Shown here: in pieces, positions 4,366-63,896 of the stretch
Layout of the letters: every line of letters begins with the position of its first letter
Numbering within the stretch: the stretch's first letter is position 1
Virus record (IMG/VR): IMGVR_UViG_3300042691_053605
Location: 32,001 to 96,000 of that record
Source of the DNA: a virus
Reading direction: 5' to 3' (one strand)
DNA: 64,000 nucleotides
The notes under the pieces: generated by a model
The model's database searches: none
What the model was told of the DNA's origin: nothing
Seen by the model: the letters and a program-made list of their open reading frames with translations, nothing else
Translations under genes and position numbers: made by a program

Positions 4366-4987
4366 TCTCTAGAGTTTTTGCAATCCAATAAGAATCCACA
4401 ATATCGTCAACGGGTTTTAGCCAGGCTCCGCGTTTTGTTTGAAATTCTGCTGGATGGTTTCTTAAAGAAGTTGCAAATTCAGAGTCACAGTCAGAATCAA
4501 TAAACGCCTGAATCATTTGTTCCTTTTTGAAATTTCCTTTTCCCGCAGTTGCTTTAATAGTCATAGGCGAGAAGAACCATAATTGTTCTACACCTATTTC
4601 GCAGTCTTCTAATAAAAAAGATCTCAGCAACCATTGGTAGCCACTAATCTGTGCTAATCGGTTTCCACTAGATCCAAATGAAAAGCCTTCGATTGCAATA
4701 CGATCCTCTTCAGAAAAAGAGTATTCACTTAACATTTTTGAAACGCTACGTGTTTGCATTAAGGCATCGGTAATTGATGATCTCTCACGTTCGGTAAGCA
4801 GCGCTGTTTTTTTCAACGCGGGCTCATCGGGCAAGGCAATCACATTTACACCGTTATCTTTTAGTGTAAGAAAAAAGTCTTCTTTTGCAACGCTATTTCT
4901 GGCAAATGTATAAAAGCGCCATTCACCGGAATTGGTAAGTAGAGTAACCGCAGGAGACTTTATGCTAAAGTCAATTCCTACCGTCAT
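4346..4987 (-). CDS. RuvC-like Holliday junction resolvase
   Basis: RNase H-fold catalytic motifs VGIDFS, IAIEG, TIKATAGKGN and DDIVDSY. Confidence 0.8.
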   Translation of the reverse strand: MTVGIDFSIKSPAVTLLTNSGEWRFYTFARNSVAKEDFFLTLKDNGVNVIALPDEPALKKTALLTERERSSITDALMQTRSVSKMLSEYSFSEEDRIAIEGFSFGSSGNRLAQISGYQWLLRSFLLEDCEIGVEQLWFFSPMTIKATAGKGNFKKEQMIQAFIDSDCDSEFATSLRNHPAEFQTKRGAWLKPVDDIVDSYWIAKTLEKTLIKP

Positions 4988-5310
4988 TTTGTTATACTTT
5001 TAGCGACAGCGGCGCCTAATGCAGTAGATACAAGACGTGATGTAAACATATCATATAATATGCCTTTTTCCACACCCAGTGCATTGGCGATAATTTTTCC
5101 AATAGTAGGGCCGATAATAAAACCAGCAGCTCCACCAATAATAGAGGCAAGAATGCCTTCGTTAATTCCTTCAATACCGTGAATTTCCACAGCCTCTTTT
5201 AGTTCTCTGTAAATTCTTTCGGCTTCACTTTTTTCTGACTCGGTTAGGAATGTAAGATCTACGCTTTCTTCTAGTAGTTGTACGTTTTTTGCTTCGTTGA
5301 AAGTTTTCAT
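4984..5310 (-). CDS. Small virion/membrane protein with glycine-zipper hydrophobic segments
   Basis: MKTFNE start, several [LI]-x-E sites, hydrophobic GILASIIGGAAGFIIG; preceded by GATATATAG. Confidence 0.65.
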   Translation of the reverse strand: MKTFNEAKNVQLLEESVDLTFLTESEKSEAERIYRELKEAVEIHGIEGINEGILASIIGGAAGFIIGPTIGKIIANALGVEKGILYDMFTSRLVSTALGAAVAKSITK

Positions 5311-5331: not shown

Positions 5332-5340
5332 CTATATATC
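5332..5340 (-). promoter_or_regulatory. Late-promoter-like motif, class A (GATATATAG)
   Basis: Recurs just upstream of start codons; resembles the T4 late promoter TATAAATA. Confidence 0.6.
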
Positions 5341-31500: not shown

Positions 31501-32247
31501 ATGGCGCAGACAAAAATTCTAGCCATATCTTTTGCCTTCAATGAAATTAATTTCATTAAGTTAAAAAAACAATGGTGCAAAAATGAAAATATTGATCTCT
31601 ATATTATAGACAATATTTCTAATGATGGCACATGGGAATGCTTATTGGAGCAAGGCATTTCATGCCATCAATTTGATACAAATGGCGAGTTTCACCTAAA
31701 TAAGCTCCAGGATGAACTCATTAAAACTGTTCATGCTATTAAGCCTGATTGGATAATTTATATGGGCGCTGATGAATTTCTTTTTTCTCCAAATGGAATT
31801 AGAAAAGATATAGAAGAAGCGGATCGGCAAGGCTATACTGTCATAAATAATAAAACTTTAAACTTTCACAATACCGGTGAAAACTCAGACTTACATATGT
31901 TTGAAAAGTTTTTTTATTATAGCGATTACGGAACTCAGGTCAGAATAAAAAAGTACTCACCTAACATATCTTTGTGGGCTGACTATTTTGTAGGCGATAC
32001 AAATATCAAAAAATCGTCGGGATTTTGTCTTGTAAACTATGGAGATACAAAAACCGCTGCCGAGAGAGAAGAAACTCTTAAACGCAGAGAAAAAGCCTGG
32101 GCAAATAATCTGGATAAAAATTTTGGAAATCACTACGTAAAAGGGAAAGCAAAAAACTGGATCTGGGATAAAACCGAGCTTATCGATATTCGAACTACTA
32201 ATTATTCATGGGTTTTGCAAAAACTTAAAGAACTGAAATCCCTTTAA
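31501..32247 (+). CDS. Glycosyltransferase family 2-like protein
   Basis: FAFNE, IIDNISNDGT and WIIYMGADEF (GT-A DxD-like). Confidence 0.75.
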   Translation: MAQTKILAISFAFNEINFIKLKKQWCKNENIDLYIIDNISNDGTWECLLEQGISCHQFDTNGEFHLNKLQDELIKTVHAIKPDWIIYMGADEFLFSPNGIRKDIEEADRQGYTVINNKTLNFHNTGENSDLHMFEKFFYYSDYGTQVRIKKYSPNISLWADYFVGDTNIKKSSGFCLVNYGDTKTAAEREETLKRREKAWANNLDKNFGNHYVKGKAKNWIWDKTELIDIRTTNYSWVLQKLKELKSL

Positions 32248-45436: not shown

Positions 45437-45775
45437 TTATAGCTCGGGAATAAACCCAAGACTATTCATGCAATCCTGGTCAAAATAGTTTTTCTGACTT
45501 CTTGGATATTTATGACTCCACAAAACAGTTTCGTTTTCTACAATTTCAATATAAAAAAACCCTCCGCCTTCTCCTACAGTAATAACCCATTCCGATCCAG
45601 CGCGTTTGTCATTTCCAACATAAACCTCAGCAAAATCAAAACGATTATCAGTATTTTCTTCTGTGCGTTCTTCATCAAGTTCAAAAGTTATTCCATTAAG
45701 CCTAAGCTTTTTTTCAATATCAAATGGAAGAGACGCCTCATTTAAGAAGGACTCAAATGTTTTAACGTGTTTCAT
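45437..45775 (-). CDS. Hypothetical protein with capsid-targeting-like N-terminus
   Basis: MKHVKTFESFLNEA. Confidence 0.65.
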   Translation of the reverse strand: MKHVKTFESFLNEASLPFDIEKKLRLNGITFELDEERTEENTDNRFDFAEVYVGNDKRAGSEWVITVGEGGGFFYIEIVENETVLWSHKYPRSQKNYFDQDCMNSLGFIPEL

Positions 45776-56649: not shown

Positions 56650-56919
56650 ATGTCTATAGCATCATTTGGCGAATTCAAAAAGACTCTTAACGAAGAAGAG
56701 GAAGGAAAAATGTACTTGCAGGATTTGCAAGAAATTGCTACTTTAGCCACTAAACTTCGTGAAATGATAGATCCTAAAGAAGATCTTGAAGCCTGGATCC
56801 AGGACAAAATAACCATTGCTCATCACAATATGGAAGCAATTCATGGTTATTACAAATCCGAAGAAAAAGGTGGAACCAATTCCACTGCAACTGGCGACGT
56901 CTCAACAACTAGTTTGTAA
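56650..56919 (+). CDS. Small protein with capsid-targeting-like N-terminus
   Basis: MSIASFGEFKKTLNEEEE; DLEAWIQDKIT motif; preceded by a class A motif. Confidence 0.65.
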   Translation: MSIASFGEFKKTLNEEEEGKMYLQDLQEIATLATKLREMIDPKEDLEAWIQDKITIAHHNMEAIHGYYKSEEKGGTNSTATGDVSTTSL

Positions 56920-57546: not shown

Positions 57547-57867
57547 TCACGCTTTTCTGCGTGCCTCTCTTTTAGCGAGTTTTTCTGCTCGGGCCTCTTC
57601 TATTTGTTTGTTCTTTTGCAAAATCTCTTCGGCCTGTTCACGAGTGTGCCCAGATTCCATTAAGCTTGCTAATTGTTTTGACCAATTTTCTGCCTCATCA
57701 TTAATTCTTTGATTTTCGGCTTCCTGGATATTTTGCAAATATGTTTGTTTAACATATTCTTTTTTGCGGGCTTTGATAGCCTCGCGTTGTTCAAAAGTCA
57801 TTTGTTTTTCAATTTTGTGAAAACCAAATTGTTTTTCCATCTGACGACGTTCTCTTCTATTTTGCAT
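57547..57867 (-). CDS. Hypothetical charged helical protein (NRRERR motif)
   Basis: 106-aa ORF. Confidence 0.6.
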   Translation of the reverse strand: MQNRRERRQMEKQFGFHKIEKQMTFEQREAIKARKKEYVKQTYLQNIQEAENQRINDEAENWSKQLASLMESGHTREQAEEILQKNKQIEEARAEKLAKREARRKA

Positions 57868-58393
57868 TGTTAAAGGATTTTTGATACATAACGTTAAACA
57901 ATCTTAAAAAGGCTCCTAATAGTAGAGTTTCCGAAGACTGTAAAGCCTCCGATACATCTACCATAGTAAGTTCTGAATTGGCCTCTTGATGAGATCCATC
58001 AGGTTGATTATTGCCTTTTTGAATTCCAGTTACATCAACCGCAAAAGCAGGATATTGACGGTCACTATCTTTGCTATCGTGAAAATTTCCAAGGAACACC
58101 CAACGATTTGTATCCGCGGGATCCAATTTGTATCCGCCTTCCTCGTAGAGTTCTCTTACCGCAGCCTCATAGGCATCCGCATCGGAATTATCAATAGTTC
58201 CGGTAATTAGCGTATCTGCGTAATTGGTTTCTCTAAGTGGATTCCACTCTTTCAAAACTCCAATTTTTTCAATAATTCCGCCTTTGCTTACGGTAAACGG
58301 AAGAACTGCAACCGATACCGTTTTTGTGTGTACTCCGTACTTACCGTTTACTTCTACAATATCGAAGTACGGCGTTTCAAATAATTTATTCAT
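57857..58393 (-). CDS. NUDIX hydrolase (likely start MNKLF)
   Basis: Nudix box variant GTIDNSDADAYEAAVRELYEEGGY. Confidence 0.8.
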   Translation of the reverse strand: MNKLFETPYFDIVEVNGKYGVHTKTVSVAVLPFTVSKGGIIEKIGVLKEWNPLRETNYADTLITGTIDNSDADAYEAAVRELYEEGGYKLDPADTNRWVFLGNFHDSKDSDRQYPAFAVDVTGIQKGNNQPDGSHQEANSELTMVDVSEALQSSETLLLGAFLRLFNVMYQKSFNNAK

Positions 58394-58901
58394 TTTTTCC
58401 TCTTTTTTTCTTGGTGACTGCATCCACTTTTTGTTTAACTATTAATCTGATTTGATCCATTACGGAATCATTGTTTACCGAGCGTACCAAATAATTTGCG
58501 ATATGAGTGTCGCCTCCATTATATGAATCCACAATAACTTTTATGAGTTCGTCAGATGGCATATCTAAATCCAGAGTAATCTGCATTTTGGTCTTCTTTT
58601 TCTTACTCATTTCCAATAAGTCATATACCGGATTGAGTTCAGCTGGCGGCTGTGTTTTTGCTTCTTTCTTTACCACTTCTTCCTGACGAGGAGCTTTAAC
58701 GGGTTCAGGTTCCGGCAGATACGGTGCTTCCGCTGGATTACTAATAGGAAGAATCCATTCTCCTACTAATTGAGTATTACATTGGCTGCCATCTTCAAAT
58801 ACAAAAAACTCCATGTTATCATCGTTAATTGTAGTCACGGCTGTAACAATTTTCCCCATTTGGTCGCCGCGAACCCATTGGAACATTTGTGGTTTATCCA
58901 T
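58386..58901 (-). CDS. Hypothetical protein (likely start MDKPQ)
   Basis: 3' part of ORF 58386..59213; the start lies just after the stop of the upstream gene. Confidence 0.6.
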   Translation of the reverse strand: MDKPQMFQWVRGDQMGKIVTAVTTINDDNMEFFVFEDGSQCNTQLVGEWILPISNPAEAPYLPEPEPVKAPRQEEVVKKEAKTQPPAELNPVYDLLEMSKKKKTKMQITLDLDMPSDELIKVIVDSYNGGDTHIANYLVRSVNNDSVMDQIRLIVKQKVDAVTKKKRGKNE

Positions 58902-59536: not shown

Positions 59537-59544
59537 CAGGGCAT

Positions 59545-59579
59545 AAAAAAGCCTTGAACACTGGTAAAAGTTCAAGGCT
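59545..59579 (-). terminator. Rho-independent terminator
   Basis: 10-bp stem AGCCTTGAAC / GTTCAAGGCT with a 10-nt loop, followed by a T-run on the minus strand. Confidence 0.75.
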
Positions 59580-59599: not shown

Positions 59600-60427
59600 T
59601 TATAGCTTTACTTCTGGCTTAATAACCCCACTTGTATATGCGCCAATAAAAATTTCATTTTTTTGCACATTTTTAATTGCAATAATTTCGCCATCTTTAG
59701 CAGGCTGTTGGTTATTTCGTATGAATATAATCGGATGATTTTTGAAGTAGTTTTCGTATGCGACTTCTTGAAACTTTGCTTCAAGATTAGACCATCCTTG
59801 AGGATCATTTCTTTTAATAACATCAATATCGCCTTTATTAAATTCTTTGGTCTTTTTAATACCGTTTTTGTCAAGTAGATCTGCAAATTCTTGAATAATT
59901 GGCATCACCTTATCGGGAAATGTTCCGCCCATCTTAAAATTTGAAGCAACATTAGCGGAAGAAACATATACCGCTTTCAGCTCATAAGTAGTACCGCCTG
60001 ATGAAATATCAGCGCCTGCACTACTGCCACCGCCGATAACAGCATCATTAACCAAAAAGTAAATTAAAACTTCGCCAGGACCAATTCCACCAACTTTATA
60101 TTTGAAAAGATTTGTAAATCCTTGCGCGTTCTCAGATCTCAATTCCCCGATTAATTTATTTATGCCAGCCATATCTACTGATCCCAATGTTGTACTTAAA
60201 TCAAACTTTGGAAAAAAGTACTTTTTGAAAAGATACTGAATTGCTTTTTTGTAAGTAACAGTTTTGAAGTCTGCCTCTGTAAGATTAAATCCAGAAACTT
60301 TTTCTGCTCGCGCTAAAAATTTCATATCCTCTTCACCAAGTTCAAGATTTTCAAGAATACCGCGAAAGTACTCTTCACGATTTGCTTCTTCGGTAATAAT
60401 GAAATTTTTGTAATCAAGTAAGCTCAT
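59600..60427 (-). CDS. Putative PD-(D/E)XK-fold protein with capsid-targeting-like N-terminus
   Basis: MSLLDYKNFIITEE start; GIGPGE...GADI...YELKA resembles the E...D...ExK nuclease signature. Confidence 0.5.
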   Translation of the reverse strand: MSLLDYKNFIITEEANREEYFRGILENLELGEEDMKFLARAEKVSGFNLTEADFKTVTYKKAIQYLFKKYFFPKFDLSTTLGSVDMAGINKLIGELRSENAQGFTNLFKYKVGGIGPGEVLIYFLVNDAVIGGGSSAGADISSGGTTYELKAVYVSSANVASNFKMGGTFPDKVMPIIQEFADLLDKNGIKKTKEFNKGDIDVIKRNDPQGWSNLEAKFQEVAYENYFKNHPIIFIRNNQQPAKDGEIIAIKNVQKNEIFIGAYTSGVIKPEVKL

Positions 60428-60490
60428 TCTGCGGTTGTCTTTTTTTCTTTTTATATTATCCTTAACACAAATAAAGAGTGATCACTACGA

Positions 60491-60709
60491 TCACTCTATA
60501 ACTATCTCGGGTCCACCGATGTACTCTACAATACCGCTTTTTGAAACGGATCTAATTTCATAATCAAAGGTGGTTCCTCTAAATTTTTCTCGTACTTTTG
60601 CCTGAGACTCTTCAATTGTCTCTGCATTTACAAGATAAGTTTCTGTAATGGTACGAACTTTACCATCATCATCGTAACTTGTTTTTACTCTTACTGTCCA
60701 GTGAGCCAT
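60491..60709 (-). CDS. DUF4494-like protein
   Basis: W.VRVK..DDDGKVRTITETYLVNAETIEESQAKV matches the Bacteroidota DUF4494 pattern as recalled. Confidence 0.7.
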   Translation of the reverse strand: MAHWTVRVKTSYDDDGKVRTITETYLVNAETIEESQAKVREKFRGTTFDYEIRSVSKSGIVEYIGGPEIVIE

Positions 60710-60735
60710 ATTATTGTGTTTTAAGGGTTGTCTGT

Positions 60736-60744
60736 TTATTTATC
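60736..60744 (-). promoter_or_regulatory. Class A motif (GATAAATAA)
   Basis: Overlaps the PAP2 stop codon, upstream of the DUF4494-like gene. Confidence 0.4.
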
Positions 60745-61609
60745 CTTGCAAGAGATTGTTTTCAAAAATGATATTGCAAATTTCTCGTGATATCTGTGTA
60801 TCGGAAGGATAATGAATTCCGGTAACTTCTCGGCTGCGTGCTACTCTTTCTCCCAAATCTTTTAATTCCTTTTTAATCTTGGGATATTTTCTTGAGTAAT
60901 ACTCACTCATTACAAATCCGGTTAGCGCATGACCGCTGGGATACGCCGCAGTCATTGCATCTGTTCTGATTAGCGGATAAAGAGGATAGTTGCAACATTT
61001 TGCTAATTGATAAGGCCTTGGGCGATTGATTATGTCTTTTAGAAAATAGAGAATTCCATCTGGCTGAGAGTCAATTCGGAAATACCCACCCATATCTTCC
61101 TCATAGCCGTTTTCTTTTAAGAGATCAATAAAAGACTGCGCTAAATTACTCACATCATCTACATATCTTGCAAAAGTTATCTCCTCAGCGGTGGCTTCTG
61201 CTGTAAGTTTAACCAGGGTTTCTAAATCCTTTTTTGTGGTTTCACTATCATTGGCAGGAGCGGTTGCACGCATTCTTTCGCAAATACCTTTTTCAATAAA
61301 CCAGTTCTTAATCGGATCGTCAGCCTTTTGTGAAATTTCAAAAAGTTCCATTGGAGGATTTCCGTATTGCACAGAATTAACATCGATACCCTCATCAGTA
61401 ACTCCCATTTGAGCCTCATAGAGATCGGTTTTCTTCTTCTTGCCTTTATCCGGCCCACCCTCATGCGGAATCATACCTTGTGCAATTAGAGAAGTTCTAA
61501 CGCCAAACGGTATTTCCTTTCCGTCCTCGTATTCTTTTTTGTACTTTTGTAAAGTTTCATCTGAATACGGAGATTCTTTCTCTGTTATGAATTCTTTGTA
61601 GTTTTTCAT
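60740..61609 (-). CDS. PAP2-superfamily phosphatase with capsid-targeting-like N-terminus
   Basis: C1 KDIINRPRP, C2 YPSGH, C3 SREVTGIHYPSD; start MKNYKEFITE. Confidence 0.85.
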   Translation of the reverse strand: MKNYKEFITEKESPYSDETLQKYKKEYEDGKEIPFGVRTSLIAQGMIPHEGGPDKGKKKKTDLYEAQMGVTDEGIDVNSVQYGNPPMELFEISQKADDPIKNWFIEKGICERMRATAPANDSETTKKDLETLVKLTAEATAEEITFARYVDDVSNLAQSFIDLLKENGYEEDMGGYFRIDSQPDGILYFLKDIINRPRPYQLAKCCNYPLYPLIRTDAMTAAYPSGHALTGFVMSEYYSRKYPKIKKELKDLGERVARSREVTGIHYPSDTQISREICNIIFENNLLQG

Positions 61610-61902
61610 TTATCAAGTAGGTCTTCTCTACCAAGTTGTTTGTAAACCTCTTGGCGGGTTTTTTCCATTTTTTCTGCGTACTCGGGATCGGATTTGCGGT
61701 TAAACACAATTTGTTGTGTAAGACTTCCGCTAATCTTTTTTAAGTCTTTTTTGCGTGTTTTAATCAGCCAGGCTGCAAGATCTTTAATACTTAAATCACG
61801 AAAACGGCCTTCTGCATCCGGAGCATCACTGTCTTTCCAATCTGGAGCGTTAGCAGGTTTTTTCTCTGCTAACCAACTTTCATATAGTTTTACGTACATC
61901 AT
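61606..61902 (-). CDS. Small protein with capsid-targeting-like N-terminus
   Basis: MMYVKLYESWLAE. Confidence 0.65.
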   Translation of the reverse strand: MMYVKLYESWLAEKKPANAPDWKDSDAPDAEGRFRDLSIKDLAAWLIKTRKKDLKKISGSLTQQIVFNRKSDPEYAEKMEKTRQEVYKQLGREDLLDK

Positions 61903-62444
61903 TTAGGTATTCCGATAAGAACTTTTGTTTTCATTGGACCGCCGGTGAGTTTTCTGTCGTAACTGCCATCAGGATTCATTTTGATATCCTTGTTTAGCAC
62001 TTTACGAATTTCTTTCTCATCTTTGATATGGGTCAACCCAAATTTTTGTGCAAGATCTGGATCAACCTCGGCGTAAAAGCCTCTGGTTTTCATCAGTTCA
62101 ATCATTTTTAGTACTGCATCCTTCTTTGCCTGTGTACCACCGTCCTGACCCATTACAGTCATTTTTACTCCATGCGGTGTTGGTTTACCACCAAGTACTA
62201 CATCCGCGTCAGGATCGGTATCAACATCTTTTGCAATCCAATAAGTAACATCAGAACCTTTAAGATCTGAACCTTTTTTGAATTCCACGTTTCCGCCTTT
62301 ACCTGCATACGCCTTATTAATAAGATCCACAATTTCATCAGCGTAATCCAGCAGCTCTGATTGCGGTATATCCACAAATATTTGTTTAGGATGTGCATCC
62401 GCAAAACTTTCAGCTAGCCAAGAGGCATAATTTAGAATTTTCAT
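61899..62444 (-). CDS. Hypothetical protein with capsid-targeting-like N-terminus (possibly GNAT-like fold)
   Basis: MKILNYASWLAES; DLINKAYAGKGG and MGQDGG..AKK. Confidence 0.6.
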   Translation of the reverse strand: MKILNYASWLAESFADAHPKQIFVDIPQSELLDYADEIVDLINKAYAGKGGNVEFKKGSDLKGSDVTYWIAKDVDTDPDADVVLGGKPTPHGVKMTVMGQDGGTQAKKDAVLKMIELMKTRGFYAEVDPDLAQKFGLTHIKDEKEIRKVLNKDIKMNPDGSYDRKLTGGPMKTKVLIGIPK

Positions 62445-62447
62445 ACC

Positions 62448-62456
62448 TTATTTATC
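62448..62456 (-). promoter_or_regulatory. Class A motif (GATAAATAA)
   Basis: 3 nt upstream of the ATG at 62444; heads the capsid-targeting-like gene cluster. Confidence 0.45.
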
Positions 62457-63060
62457 TTGGAGTAGTAATGTCCTTAGACTCTAGCAGAGTATATGTAAAT
62501 GAGTTGCCCCACAGATTTTTTGCGGATCTGCAAATTTCCATAAAGGTGTAAAAGTCTTTTTTCCTCTTAAACACTTGGCAGCCTTCTGACCAGTTTTCTA
62601 CATAGGTTGAATCTTCACCAGCATGATGGATATTAATTCCAAACCCGGTTCCTTCGTCATATAAAGTGCCATCAAATACCATATCGCGGTCAGAATCCCG
62701 GTAAACTTTAAGAAGACCTTTTTGACGCAGGGCTTCATAGTTTTTATGTGGACCTATCATATGAGAGCCAGGGTACTGACCCGGAATTAACCGGGCCACA
62801 CCTTGACGATTTCCATATTCCATGACACCTTTTTTCCCAGGATCTGTGGTAATAATCCACTCATGGTATTTCCACACTTCATTAATTTTGTACACAAGAC
62901 ACATTCTGTCGTCAAACAAATTCGTTACCGCATTTCCTACATCACTATTCCGAACTCCTACTATATTAAGATTGTAATTTCCTTCGTCAAACCAACGGTA
63001 GCCTTTTGACTTTACCGTGGCCTCAATTTGCCCGTGTGTCCAATTCATTGAAGTTTCCAT
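62452..63060 (-). CDS. YkuD/L,D-transpeptidase-like cysteine enzyme
   Basis: INIHHAGEDSTYVENWSEGCQV resembles H-x(n)-S-x-G-C; coupled to the endolysin gene. Confidence 0.6.
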   Translation of the reverse strand: METSMNWTHGQIEATVKSKGYRWFDEGNYNLNIVGVRNSDVGNAVTNLFDDRMCLVYKINEVWKYHEWIITTDPGKKGVMEYGNRQGVARLIPGQYPGSHMIGPHKNYEALRQKGLLKVYRDSDRDMVFDGTLYDEGTGFGINIHHAGEDSTYVENWSEGCQVFKRKKDFYTFMEICRSAKNLWGNSFTYTLLESKDITTPR

Positions 63061-63896
63061 TATTTTAGAAGCGCGTAATACTCTTTGAAATGCTTAATGC
63101 GGTCAGCCAATCCAATGGTTCCACCGTTAACTCTTTTAGTTACCGCTGTTACTGTTGCGTCATCCGCGCCTTTATCACAAATACTCCACAATTTGTTGGA
63201 ATCAAAGAAAAAAGCAGCAGAAGCCAGCGCATATTTAGAAGCAACTAAATCAGGAGCGGCTACGCAGTCTTCTCCAATAAACTTAGTAAAGGCAGTATAG
63301 TTACTTTTACCAGTCAATTGGATATATCCACGACCGCGGTAGTTCCAACCATCTTTGGAAGCCTCGTCTCCGTTACCCATACGGCTTGCGTATACTCGAG
63401 CGGCAATTTTTTCCGGTTGACGAGCATAAGAGGCGGAAAGATCTCCAGGAAAGTATTTTCCAAAAATCTTCTTTAGCCCATCTGCACTGTAATTAAGATT
63501 TTCAGCAACCGCCTTAAATCCTCCACTTTCATGTCCACACTGGGCTAAGAAATGTGCAAGTCTAAGACTGTTAGTGATATTAAATTTTGCAGCAGTGTCA
63601 GGAATTTGAGCAAGTACAGCGTCAGGAATATGTCCTTTTAATTTGTCTAACTTAAATCCGGAAGCTGATGGAGCAGCCGCAACTGGAGCCGCTGTTTCAG
63701 CAACATGAACTGCGCCAAGACCCATACGTTCCCATGTGGCGTTACCAACAATACCGTCAGCAGACAATCCGTGTTTTTCTTGCCATATCTTTACAGCAGC
63801 CTCGGTGCCAGGACCGAAAGCTCCATCATCAGCAAGTCCTAAAAATCTTTGAAGAGACTTTACCTCTTCGCCAGATGATCCTTTTTTCAATAACAT
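63060..63896 (-). CDS. Endolysin: peptidoglycan-binding domain plus GH19 domain
   Basis: LKKGSSGEEVKSLQ...DGIVGNATW PG-binding domain; FLAQCGHESGGF, YRGRGYIQLTGKSNY, VTKRVNGG. Confidence 0.93.
   Translation of the reverse strand: MLLKKGSSGEEVKSLQRFLGLADDGAFGPGTEAAVKIWQEKHGLSADGIVGNATWERMGLGAVHVAETAAPVAAAPSASGFKLDKLKGHIPDAVLAQIPDTAAKFNITNSLRLAHFLAQCGHESGGFKAVAENLNYSADGLKKIFGKYFPGDLSASYARQPEKIAARVYASRMGNGDEASKDGWNYRGRGYIQLTGKSNYTAFTKFIGEDCVAAPDLVASKYALASAAFFFDSNKLWSICDKGADDATVTAVTKRVNGGTIGLADRIKHFKEYYALLK

Follow-up and report, generated by a model that had tools for sequence, protein, structure and literature searches.

A T4-type capsid-targeting tag is a likely explanation for leaders shared by a cassette of enzyme-like proteins in an uncultured phage

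A capsid-targeting sequence (CTS) of bacteriophage T4 was reportedly described by Mullaney and Black in 1996. This sequence, MKTYQEFIAE (10.1101/2021.01.19.427310), is found on IPI, IPII and IPIII, which are internal proteins, and on Alt, from which it is removed by the prohead protease gp21 (reviewed in PMC9026906, PMC5694885 and PMC3012670), and amber-suppressor mutagenesis has assigned targeting to its residues 4 and 7 and processing to residues 8 and 10 (PMC9026906). Among T-even phages the variable internal-protein genes encode diverse defence-countering proteins in which only the CTS is conserved (PMC3012670, PMC9026906), and reviews have already suggested that T4-like phages load varied proteins in this way (PMC9026906). 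In the giant phages phiKZ, 201phi2-1 and SPN3US, ejection or inner-body proteins are cut by S80 proteases at [SAG]-x-Glu (PMC5694885, PMC7411985). A literature search, which was not exhaustive, returned no account of mass use of CTS-like tags beyond the T-even phages, P1 and the giant phiKZ-like phages. Here we describe leaders of 10-13 residues at the start of four of five successive genes, on the minus strand at 59600-62444 of a 64,000-nucleotide window (positions 32,001 to 96,000 of the IMG/VR virus record IMGVR_UViG_3300042691_053605). We consider it likely that these leaders are the form taken in this phage by the T4-type tag for capsid targeting and cleavage, and the four enzyme-like proteins of this cassette are probably packed in the capsid with the DNA, in the manner of T4 but on a much larger scale.

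The window forms part of a linear record of 142,917 bp with a CheckV completeness of about 50%. The counts of tagged genes given for the record are lower bounds for this reason, and genes that seem to be missing from it (a late sigma factor, for one) may be encoded beyond the sequence at hand.

The tag and the head machinery

An earlier note on this DNA had claimed that four of the five consecutive genes share a leader, and this was borne out, as each of the four opens with aromatic-x-x-aromatic-[LIV]-x-Glu, fits aromatic-x-x-aromatic-[LI]-x(1-2)-E, and does so from the earliest possible start codon of its open reading frame (ORF). When the leader pattern proposed in that note, M-x(1-5)-[YF]-x-x-[FW]-[IL]-x(1-2)-E, was scanned over the ORF set of the 143-kb record (162 ORFs, 45,844 residues), it stood at the N-terminus of 24 ORFs and internally only five times. 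The core [FYW]xx[FWYH][LIV]xE was N-terminal 19 times against 0.5 +/- 0.7 expected from shuffled proteins, giving 19 to 24 tagged ORFs according to the pattern used. At a tagged fraction of 0.15, four tagged genes among five neighbours would be, by our arithmetic, an event of about 0.002. Internal matches to the core numbered 26, ten of them in the head protease alone, with the other 16 near chance level (8 +/- 3 expected).

AT-rich genomes readily yield short motifs with many K, E, F and L residues, and the resemblance could in principle have arisen by chance or by paralogy among the four genes. This is exceedingly improbable given the 19 N-terminal copies, the retention of the tag across hundreds of homologues of three different cargo families (see below) and the result of BLAST with the tags removed, in which the tagged proteins showed no mutual similarity save for one marginal pair outside the cassette. 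Paralogy as the source of the shared N-termini was ruled out on the strength of that search. A DNA-level repeat or promoter cassette was ruled out as well, as the upstream regions differ and the codons vary. The DNA upstream of the tags was not conserved, and the conserved residues were encoded variably (Leu by six codons, Phe by two and Glu by two); selection therefore acts on the tag peptide and not on the DNA.

Alignment of the 19 tags selected by the core motif gave 3.9 bits of information at the Glu and less than 1.6 bits thereafter, with S, A or G as the next residue in 15 of the 19; positions outside the selecting pattern were also conserved, and the signal ended at the Glu. The functional positions of the T4 CTS (Y4, F7, I8 and E10) are the four that are kept in the tags of this phage, the tag of the cassette's PAP2 protein (MKNYKEFITE) shares seven of ten residues with that of T4, and the T4 sites IAE/A and LTE/A (the slash marking the cut) have a small residue after the Glu, as here. 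The same patterns were run as a control on 140 kb of T4, where five of 226 ORFs matched, namely ipII, ipIII, gp61.1 and two likely chance matches, and where the known gp23 cleavage site FGSFLTE also fits. The T4 gene 61.1 (L023:18966-19130) encodes a hypothetical protein of 54 amino acids (aa) that starts MKTFKEFIKE, close to the CTS. With Asp in place of the Glu, the T4 tag is no longer cut but still targets.

Several tag subtypes coexist within this one phage. Related leaders had also been reported elsewhere in the window, and here the outcome was mixed: the one at 45775 is canonical, whereas those at 56650 and 5310 are diverged and are only possible members. Outside the window, a tagged acidic, low-complexity protein of 196 aa (genome 101621-102211) contains a second, internal copy of the motif, FESFLAE at residue 141, and looks like a head-core component. 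It is kept in the relative L030 together with a tagged 355-aa protein (genome 100554-101621, also outside the window) whose gene sits behind a TATATAG motif.

The head protease of this phage matched Peptidase_S77, the family of T4 gp21 (7.2e-12; 45.7 bits against a cut-off of 27), and scored better as S77 than as S80, and the capsid protein matched Pfam Gp23 (1.4e-37); the two were also matched by phrog_207 and phrog_138. In the protease-scaffold protein the S77 domain takes up the first 170 residues or so and is followed by a long helical tail, in which the heptad Y-[AS]-[EN]-[YH]-[LIV]-A-E recurs at 14-residue spacing over residues 268-406, with a further copy at 481, for about ten copies altogether. 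Ten evenly spaced sites would be what the scaffold of such a protease needs, and the tag variants nearest to the scaffold repeats are YESWLAE and YASWLAE of the cassette; the sites in scaffold and capsid protein are predicted cut sites.

T4 shares with this phage the protease family (S77) and the capsid family (gp23), and its cargo proteins, like those here, are unrelated to each other apart from the tag. In T4 the lysozyme gene e, which has nudE as a neighbour, is followed by ipIII and ipII, and here the cassette follows endolysin genes, with a Nudix gene at 57857-58423; T4 Alt provides a precedent for an enzyme as natural cargo. T4 differs in that gp21 and gp22 are separate proteins, whereas here the protease and a scaffold tail that carries ten heptad copies form one protein, and in that its internal proteins are small and basic, whereas the cargo here is mostly enzyme-like and near-neutral or acidic. 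This phage also has at least 19-24 tagged genes in half a genome, carries several tag subtypes, probably infects Bacteroidota and is known from its genes alone. In phiKZ-type giants, as here, a protease related to gp21 cuts many proteins of the head interior after Glu (the cuts being predicted in our case), and their propeptides have been proposed as targeting signals, but those propeptides are long and do not form a uniform short tag, and the site in this phage prefers [LIV] and upstream aromatics, not small residues.

If the leaders work as the T4 sequence does, their two aromatic residues would dock each newly made protein onto the prohead scaffolding core, formed by the tail of the protease-scaffold protein with its ten copies of the same heptad. 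Once the shell had closed, the gp21-type serine protease would cut after the Glu of [LIV]-x-Glu, reducing the scaffold to peptides of about 14 residues and removing the tag from each cargo, and the mature cargo would be kept in the head with the DNA and would most likely exit with it at infection. Four such cargos would come from the cassette, of which one is GNAT-like, one small and basic, one a PAP2 phosphatase and one restriction-endonuclease-like, and the cassette would be an internal-protein locus placed right after the lysis genes, as in T4, with its last position serving as a slot in which recombination in the conserved upstream sequence and the tag swaps the cargo. Core binding, cleavage, virion retention, injection and enzyme action in the host are steps that we infer, and it is by plausible extension from T4 that injection and a role against host defences are proposed.

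Tag classes, a gene fusion and a swap slot among relatives

Metagenome homologues were plentiful for three of the cargo families (560 for the PAP2 protein, 62 for the nuclease-like protein and 104 for the 181-aa protein). Among the best 120 of the 560 PAP2 homologues at least 65 fit the tag pattern and many others had variant leaders; many members of this family come from contigs 100-300 kb long, and they differ in the linker that follows the tag, which can contain a zinc-ribbon insert. The tag was present in 26 of the 62 nuclease-like proteins and the other 36 begin directly at the conserved core, so that the tag is a removable module.

The zinc-ribbon module (..DGV[IV]TCDNCGW.WD..GG.DPY.CHKC) directly follows the tag in P0005, P0007, P0008, P0039 and P0047 of the PAP2 family, and the same module stands after the tag in P0269 and P0276 of the 181-aa family; it may be a second portable element.

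In the 181-aa family the tags fell into two classes, MK..TFESFLNE or ..LYEEWLAE (class 1) and MIKLKSLLPE (class 2), with the switch between classes placed exactly at the invariant E12. At the 13 loci that were fetched, tagged neighbours shared the tag class of the 181-aa gene without mixtures (class 1 to class 2 among tagged neighbours was 8:0 in L006, 0:5 in L007, 0:6 in L010 and 0:4 in L015). As the class is uniform within a phage, the tag is a property of the phage and not of the cargo, which is as expected if the head machinery of each phage reads the tag. The N-terminal enrichment also held in a class-2 phage (10 against 0.4 expected).

Several relatives encode the 98-aa and PAP2 proteins as one chain. 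One fused protein, P0012, shares 83% identity over its residues 1-99 with the 98-aa protein of the cassette. Its joint reads ...EDLLDE/KESPY..., while here the 98-aa gene ends ...EDLLDK and the PAP2 protein opens with its tag and then KESPY. The predicted mature N-terminus of the PAP2 protein therefore coincides with the fusion point, and because the fused joint is itself an L-x-E site (L-D-E), the fused and split forms could yield the same two mature proteins.

The slot that follows the DUF4494 gene is occupied by a protein of 275 aa here and by proteins of 514 aa (L027), 381 aa (L030) and 596 aa (L006) in relatives. These three resemble neither the 275-aa protein nor one another, and all start M[SG]LL[DN]Y..[FW][IV]..E. 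The DNA alignment at the slot is conserved over the A-rich leader region and the tag codons and collapses just after the GAA of the tag. A constant tag, exchangeable cargo and inter-relative homology that ends at the tag are also features of the T-even internal-protein locus, from which this slot differs in the size of the swapped cargos (275-596 aa), in its position behind a conserved untagged DUF4494 gene, and in that there is no known target of the GmrSD type for its cargos. The proposal that a modular T4-style tag is used on unrelated cargo and is read by the head protease of the phage has held up in every sequence test made: similarity stops at the tag, tag class follows the phage, the tag Glu marks both the fusion junction and the point where DNA homology breaks off, the phage encodes an S77 protease and a capsid protein of the gp23 type, the scaffold repeats the same heptad, and the conserved positions are those mapped in T4.

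As inter-relative DNA homology ends at the leader, the leader does act as a recombination boundary, and it might accordingly be a scar of recombination junctions unrelated to the capsid, or else a shared N-terminal helix for expression, folding, oligomerisation or localisation in a Shine-Dalgarno-poor host. Such a role would suit the members of some families that have no leader, and Lys at position 2 and A-rich starts are frequent in highly expressed genes. It is nevertheless distinctly improbable in view of selection on amino acids and not on DNA, of an invariant residue that is the final Glu and is followed by a small residue, of the same heptad repeated ten times in the protease-scaffold protein, of a pattern equal to the T4 tag at the positions functional in T4 (PMC9026906), and of a leader class set by phage lineage.

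A closer competitor accepts the tag as a head-protease site and scaffold-association signal and differs on the cargo, which would not be injected effectors but prohead or capsid helpers, DNA-condensing or core proteins (like T4 gp67 and gp68), or proteins activated or cleared by the cut. It draws on the same sequence evidence, and the acidic 196-aa protein with its second internal motif resembles a core or scaffold component. We think it unlikely, as each cassette protein has just one site, at its very N-terminus, together with folded enzyme domains and intact catalytic motifs, and as the single-site pattern in T4 belongs to the retained and injected IPI-III and Alt, not to the core proteins that are degraded (PMC5694885). 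The exchange of cargo at one constant slot also fits host-directed arms-race genes better than it fits assembly parts.

Cargo of the cassette and its possible role

The cargo guesses of the earlier note held for the most part, the PAP2 phosphatase being confirmed, the nuclease-like protein being supported by conserved residues and weak fold matches, and the GNAT-like protein holding at the level of the fold only. The PAP2 protein matched Pfam PF01569 above the cut-off (1.4e-8) and has its motifs intact (Kx6RP as KDIINRPRP at 191, PSGH at 224 and SRx5Hx3D as SREVTGIHYPSD at 259); neither a membrane or hydrophobic segment nor a signal peptide was found in it, and its identity as a soluble PAP2 phosphatase is confirmed by these sequence features.

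In the 275-aa protein D140, E149 and K151 are invariant among 44 homologues and lie within strands 141-143 and 146-155 of the AlphaFold2 (AF2) model (predicted local distance difference test, pLDDT, 90.7). The best fold matches, all weak, were restriction enzymes (DpnI, E 0.06; MspI, Z 4.6; ThaI, 4.2; HhaI, 3.7; also PvuII and NaeI), and an Atlas search likewise pointed, weakly, towards restriction enzymes (score 0.81, template modelling (TM) score 0.41-0.44). Because of the invariant D, E and K residues and of restriction enzymes as the top, if weak, fold matches, the protein is predicted, though not proven, to be restriction-endonuclease-like. A foreign nuclease has been packaged by T4 in the laboratory, which sets a precedent (PMC3012670). 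The Atlas also contains a cluster of viral proteins, 875 aa long and bearing an RNA-ligase domain, that aligns structurally to this protein (TM 0.55 by query), so that fused forms may exist.

The 181-aa protein, in which E12 is invariant in 44 homologues, had no Pfam match, and in its AF2 model (pLDDT 76) all of the 50 best VIA rows and all Foldseek matches with E < 0.001 were GNAT acetyltransferases, the match being limited to residues 18-122 (Z up to 8.9, TM about 0.4). A conserved stretch, G-Q-D-G-[SG]-x-x-A-K, in which Q100, D101 and G102 are invariant or nearly so, resembles the acetyl-CoA pyrophosphate-binding Q/R-x-x-G-x-G/A but is non-canonical, and we regard the product as GNAT-like at the fold level only, as modelled. 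The mature part of the 98-aa protein has an isoelectric point of 9.4 and is the only cassette cargo that resembles the basic internal proteins of T4.

Searches of cultured phages returned no matches for the cassette DNA and none for the PAP2 protein, and with the 181-aa protein gave matches only in two uncultured megaphage records; the nuclease-like protein matched Vibrio phages, in which the copy has no tag. A literature search for a PTm1 virion proteome gave nothing usable. A member of Bacteroidota is the likely host, because the closest database phages for the neighbouring 679-aa protein (about 33-35% identity) are Prevotella Lak megaphages and Flavobacterium and Tenacibaculum phages. The phage encodes baseplate wedge and hub proteins, and one cluster of its genes comprises a thymidylate-synthase-family enzyme, a DNA alpha-glucosyltransferase-like protein, further glycosyltransferases and a sugar nucleotidyltransferase, which fits phage DNA with glycosylated hydroxymethyl-pyrimidine. 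A packaged nuclease would be compatible with this probable DNA modification.

Several observations weigh against the T4-type capsid tag as the explanation of the leaders. The cargo would number at least 24 species, some of them of 30-50 kDa, which is far above known T4 packing, and many tagged genes adjoin replication genes, a setting that in T4 is occupied by early genes. Among cultured phages the closest homologue of any cargo belongs to Vibrio phage Va1 and has no tag, and the 36 untagged nuclease-like proteins mean that cargo can work unpackaged. For tag class 2, only one scaffold site was found to agree with the tag, which is within shuffle noise, and the predicted cut site of the capsid protein, ..YAHYHSLNE/G, fits the tag pattern only loosely. 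No gp55-type late sigma factor was found in the record, which is only about 50% complete, and the phage and its close relatives are known from genes alone.

With the leaders read as a T4-type tag, a wider picture can be drawn tentatively, in which a portable tag would let large environmental T4-related phages load dozens of interchangeable enzymes, and swap slots would exchange the payload by recombination inside the tag-coding sequence. The tagged PAP2 and nuclease-like proteins might then be injected effectors that act, ahead of phage gene expression, on the envelope or signalling molecules of the host and on its unmodified DNA, with glycosylated hydroxymethyl-pyrimidine phage DNA being immune to the nuclease. 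We hold this picture as a whole to be possible but rather doubtful. Should the tag function as it does in T4, sequence alone would reveal which proteins uncultured phages package and probably inject, and this cassette alone would name four of them. Injected cargo would then be seen to extend beyond a handful of small, basic proteins to a large exchangeable set of enzymes. The swap slot and the lineage-specific tag classes offer concrete material for finding counter-defence or host-takeover functions, the scaffold repeats give a direct handle on how targeting and cleavage specificity co-evolve with the head, and the tags are candidates for use as natural parts with which phage heads could be loaded with foreign proteins. 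The concept of loading by a tag is already known for T4; what is added here is the control provided by the scaffold repeats, the agreement with the positions mapped in T4, the dependence of tag class on lineage, the test at the fusion junction, the swap slot, the assignment of the cargos and a correction of the promoter motif.

Neighbouring genes and promoter-like motifs

All genes of the cassette region lie on the minus strand, five of them tightly packed after two endolysin-like genes (Table 1), of which the phrog_181 match (6e-71) comes with the GH19 and PG_binding_1 domains.

Table 1. Coordinates of the cassette, related tagged genes and other features (window positions unless marked as genome)
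Feature	Position	Strand	Remarks
Tagged gene 1, 181 aa, starts MKILNYASWLAE	61899..62444	-	tag 62409-62444; mature part with predicted GNAT-like fold
Tagged gene 2, 98 aa, starts MMYVKLYESWLAE	61606..61902	-	tag 61864-61902; small basic mature part
Tagged gene 3, 289 aa, tag MKNYKEFITE	60740..61609	-	tag 61580-61609; PAP2 phosphatase
Untagged gene, 72 aa, DUF4494	60491..60709	-	Pfam DUF4494 6.8e-8
Tagged gene 4, 275 aa, starts MSLLDYKNFIITEE, tag MSLLDYKNFIITE	59600..60427	-	tag 60389-60427; predicted restriction-endonuclease-like (PD-(D/E)xK)
Canonical tagged gene, 112 aa, tag MKHVKTFESFLNE	45437..45775	-	between baseplate and neck genes
Gene with possible diverged tag MSIASFGEFKKTLNE	56650..56919	+	behind TATATAG motif; divergent from adjacent 679-aa gene
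Gene with possible diverged tag MKTFNEAKNVQLLEE	4984..5310	-	behind TATATAG motif at 5338
Head protease-scaffold protein, 631 aa	genome 137092-138987 (L005:12092-13987)	-	outside window; S77 domain and tail
Two endolysin-like genes	62452-63060 and 63060-63896	-	directly upstream of cassette; phrog_181, GH19, PG_binding_1; phrog_3000
Nudix gene	57857-58423		
Intrinsic terminator closing cassette	59540..59579	-	10-bp stem, 10-nt loop, U6
Second hairpin, possible internal terminator	60475..60497	-	overlaps DUF4494 stop codon; z = -5.0
GATAAATAA motif at cassette head	62448..62456	-	includes TAA stop of upstream endolysin-like gene; ends 3 nt before ATG
Second GATAAATAA motif	60736..60744	-	PAP2 gene end, 35 nt before DUF4494 gene
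TATATAG motifs in window	56594, 52383, 48532, 29511, 15269, 5338 (minus strand)		more outside window

The run of genes had been said to be headed by a late-type motif and closed by a terminator. The terminator is there (stem 59579-59546 and U-run, -19.2 kcal/mol, z = -3.9), and so is the motif GATAAATAA, at 62456-62448, but the main late-type motif of this phage appears to be TATATAG instead. Pairing of the second hairpin, at the DUF4494 gene, was not kept in relatives.

The 8-mer GATAAATA was strand-specific (9:0 here and 10:0 in six relatives) and mostly stood 12-35 nt ahead of a start codon, and the second copy of GATAAATAA is kept at the same junction, from the PAP2 gene to the next gene, in L027 and L030. 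The idea that GATAAATAA is a chance by-product of the TAA stop was dropped, the motif being strand-specific and conserved in relatives; by these sequence criteria it is a real motif, to which no function class is assigned. The DUF4494 gene holds the same position in relatives (homologues starting MAHWTVRV... in L006, L027 and L030). It is the sole fixed tag-less member of the cassette in all syntenic relatives and has its own upstream GATAAATA motif.

The T4-type late promoter consensus at -10 is TATAAATA, which is read by gp55. In the phage studied here (G/A)ATATATAG(T/A) had 18 copies on the coding strand against 8 on the other, 16 of the 18 being intergenic, and copies of TATATAG stand 12-48 nt before the head protease gene, genes of the tail and baseplate region and five tagged genes, directly preceding four that are clearly tagged and one with a diverged tag only. 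This motif is a candidate late promoter. PHROG annotation of the genes behind it is mostly empty, the head protease being the one of known function, and the label 'late' therefore rests on the head protease and on unannotated genes of the tail and baseplate region. The nearest TATATAG motifs upstream of the cassette lie beyond the window end, so that a long transcript running through the lysis genes into the cassette is possible but unproven.

Pfam gave no informative match for the gene at 4984..5310. Homologues of the gene at 56650..56919 in L027 and L030 likewise stand behind TATATAG, and a divergent pair of TATATAG motifs lies between 56571 and 56650.

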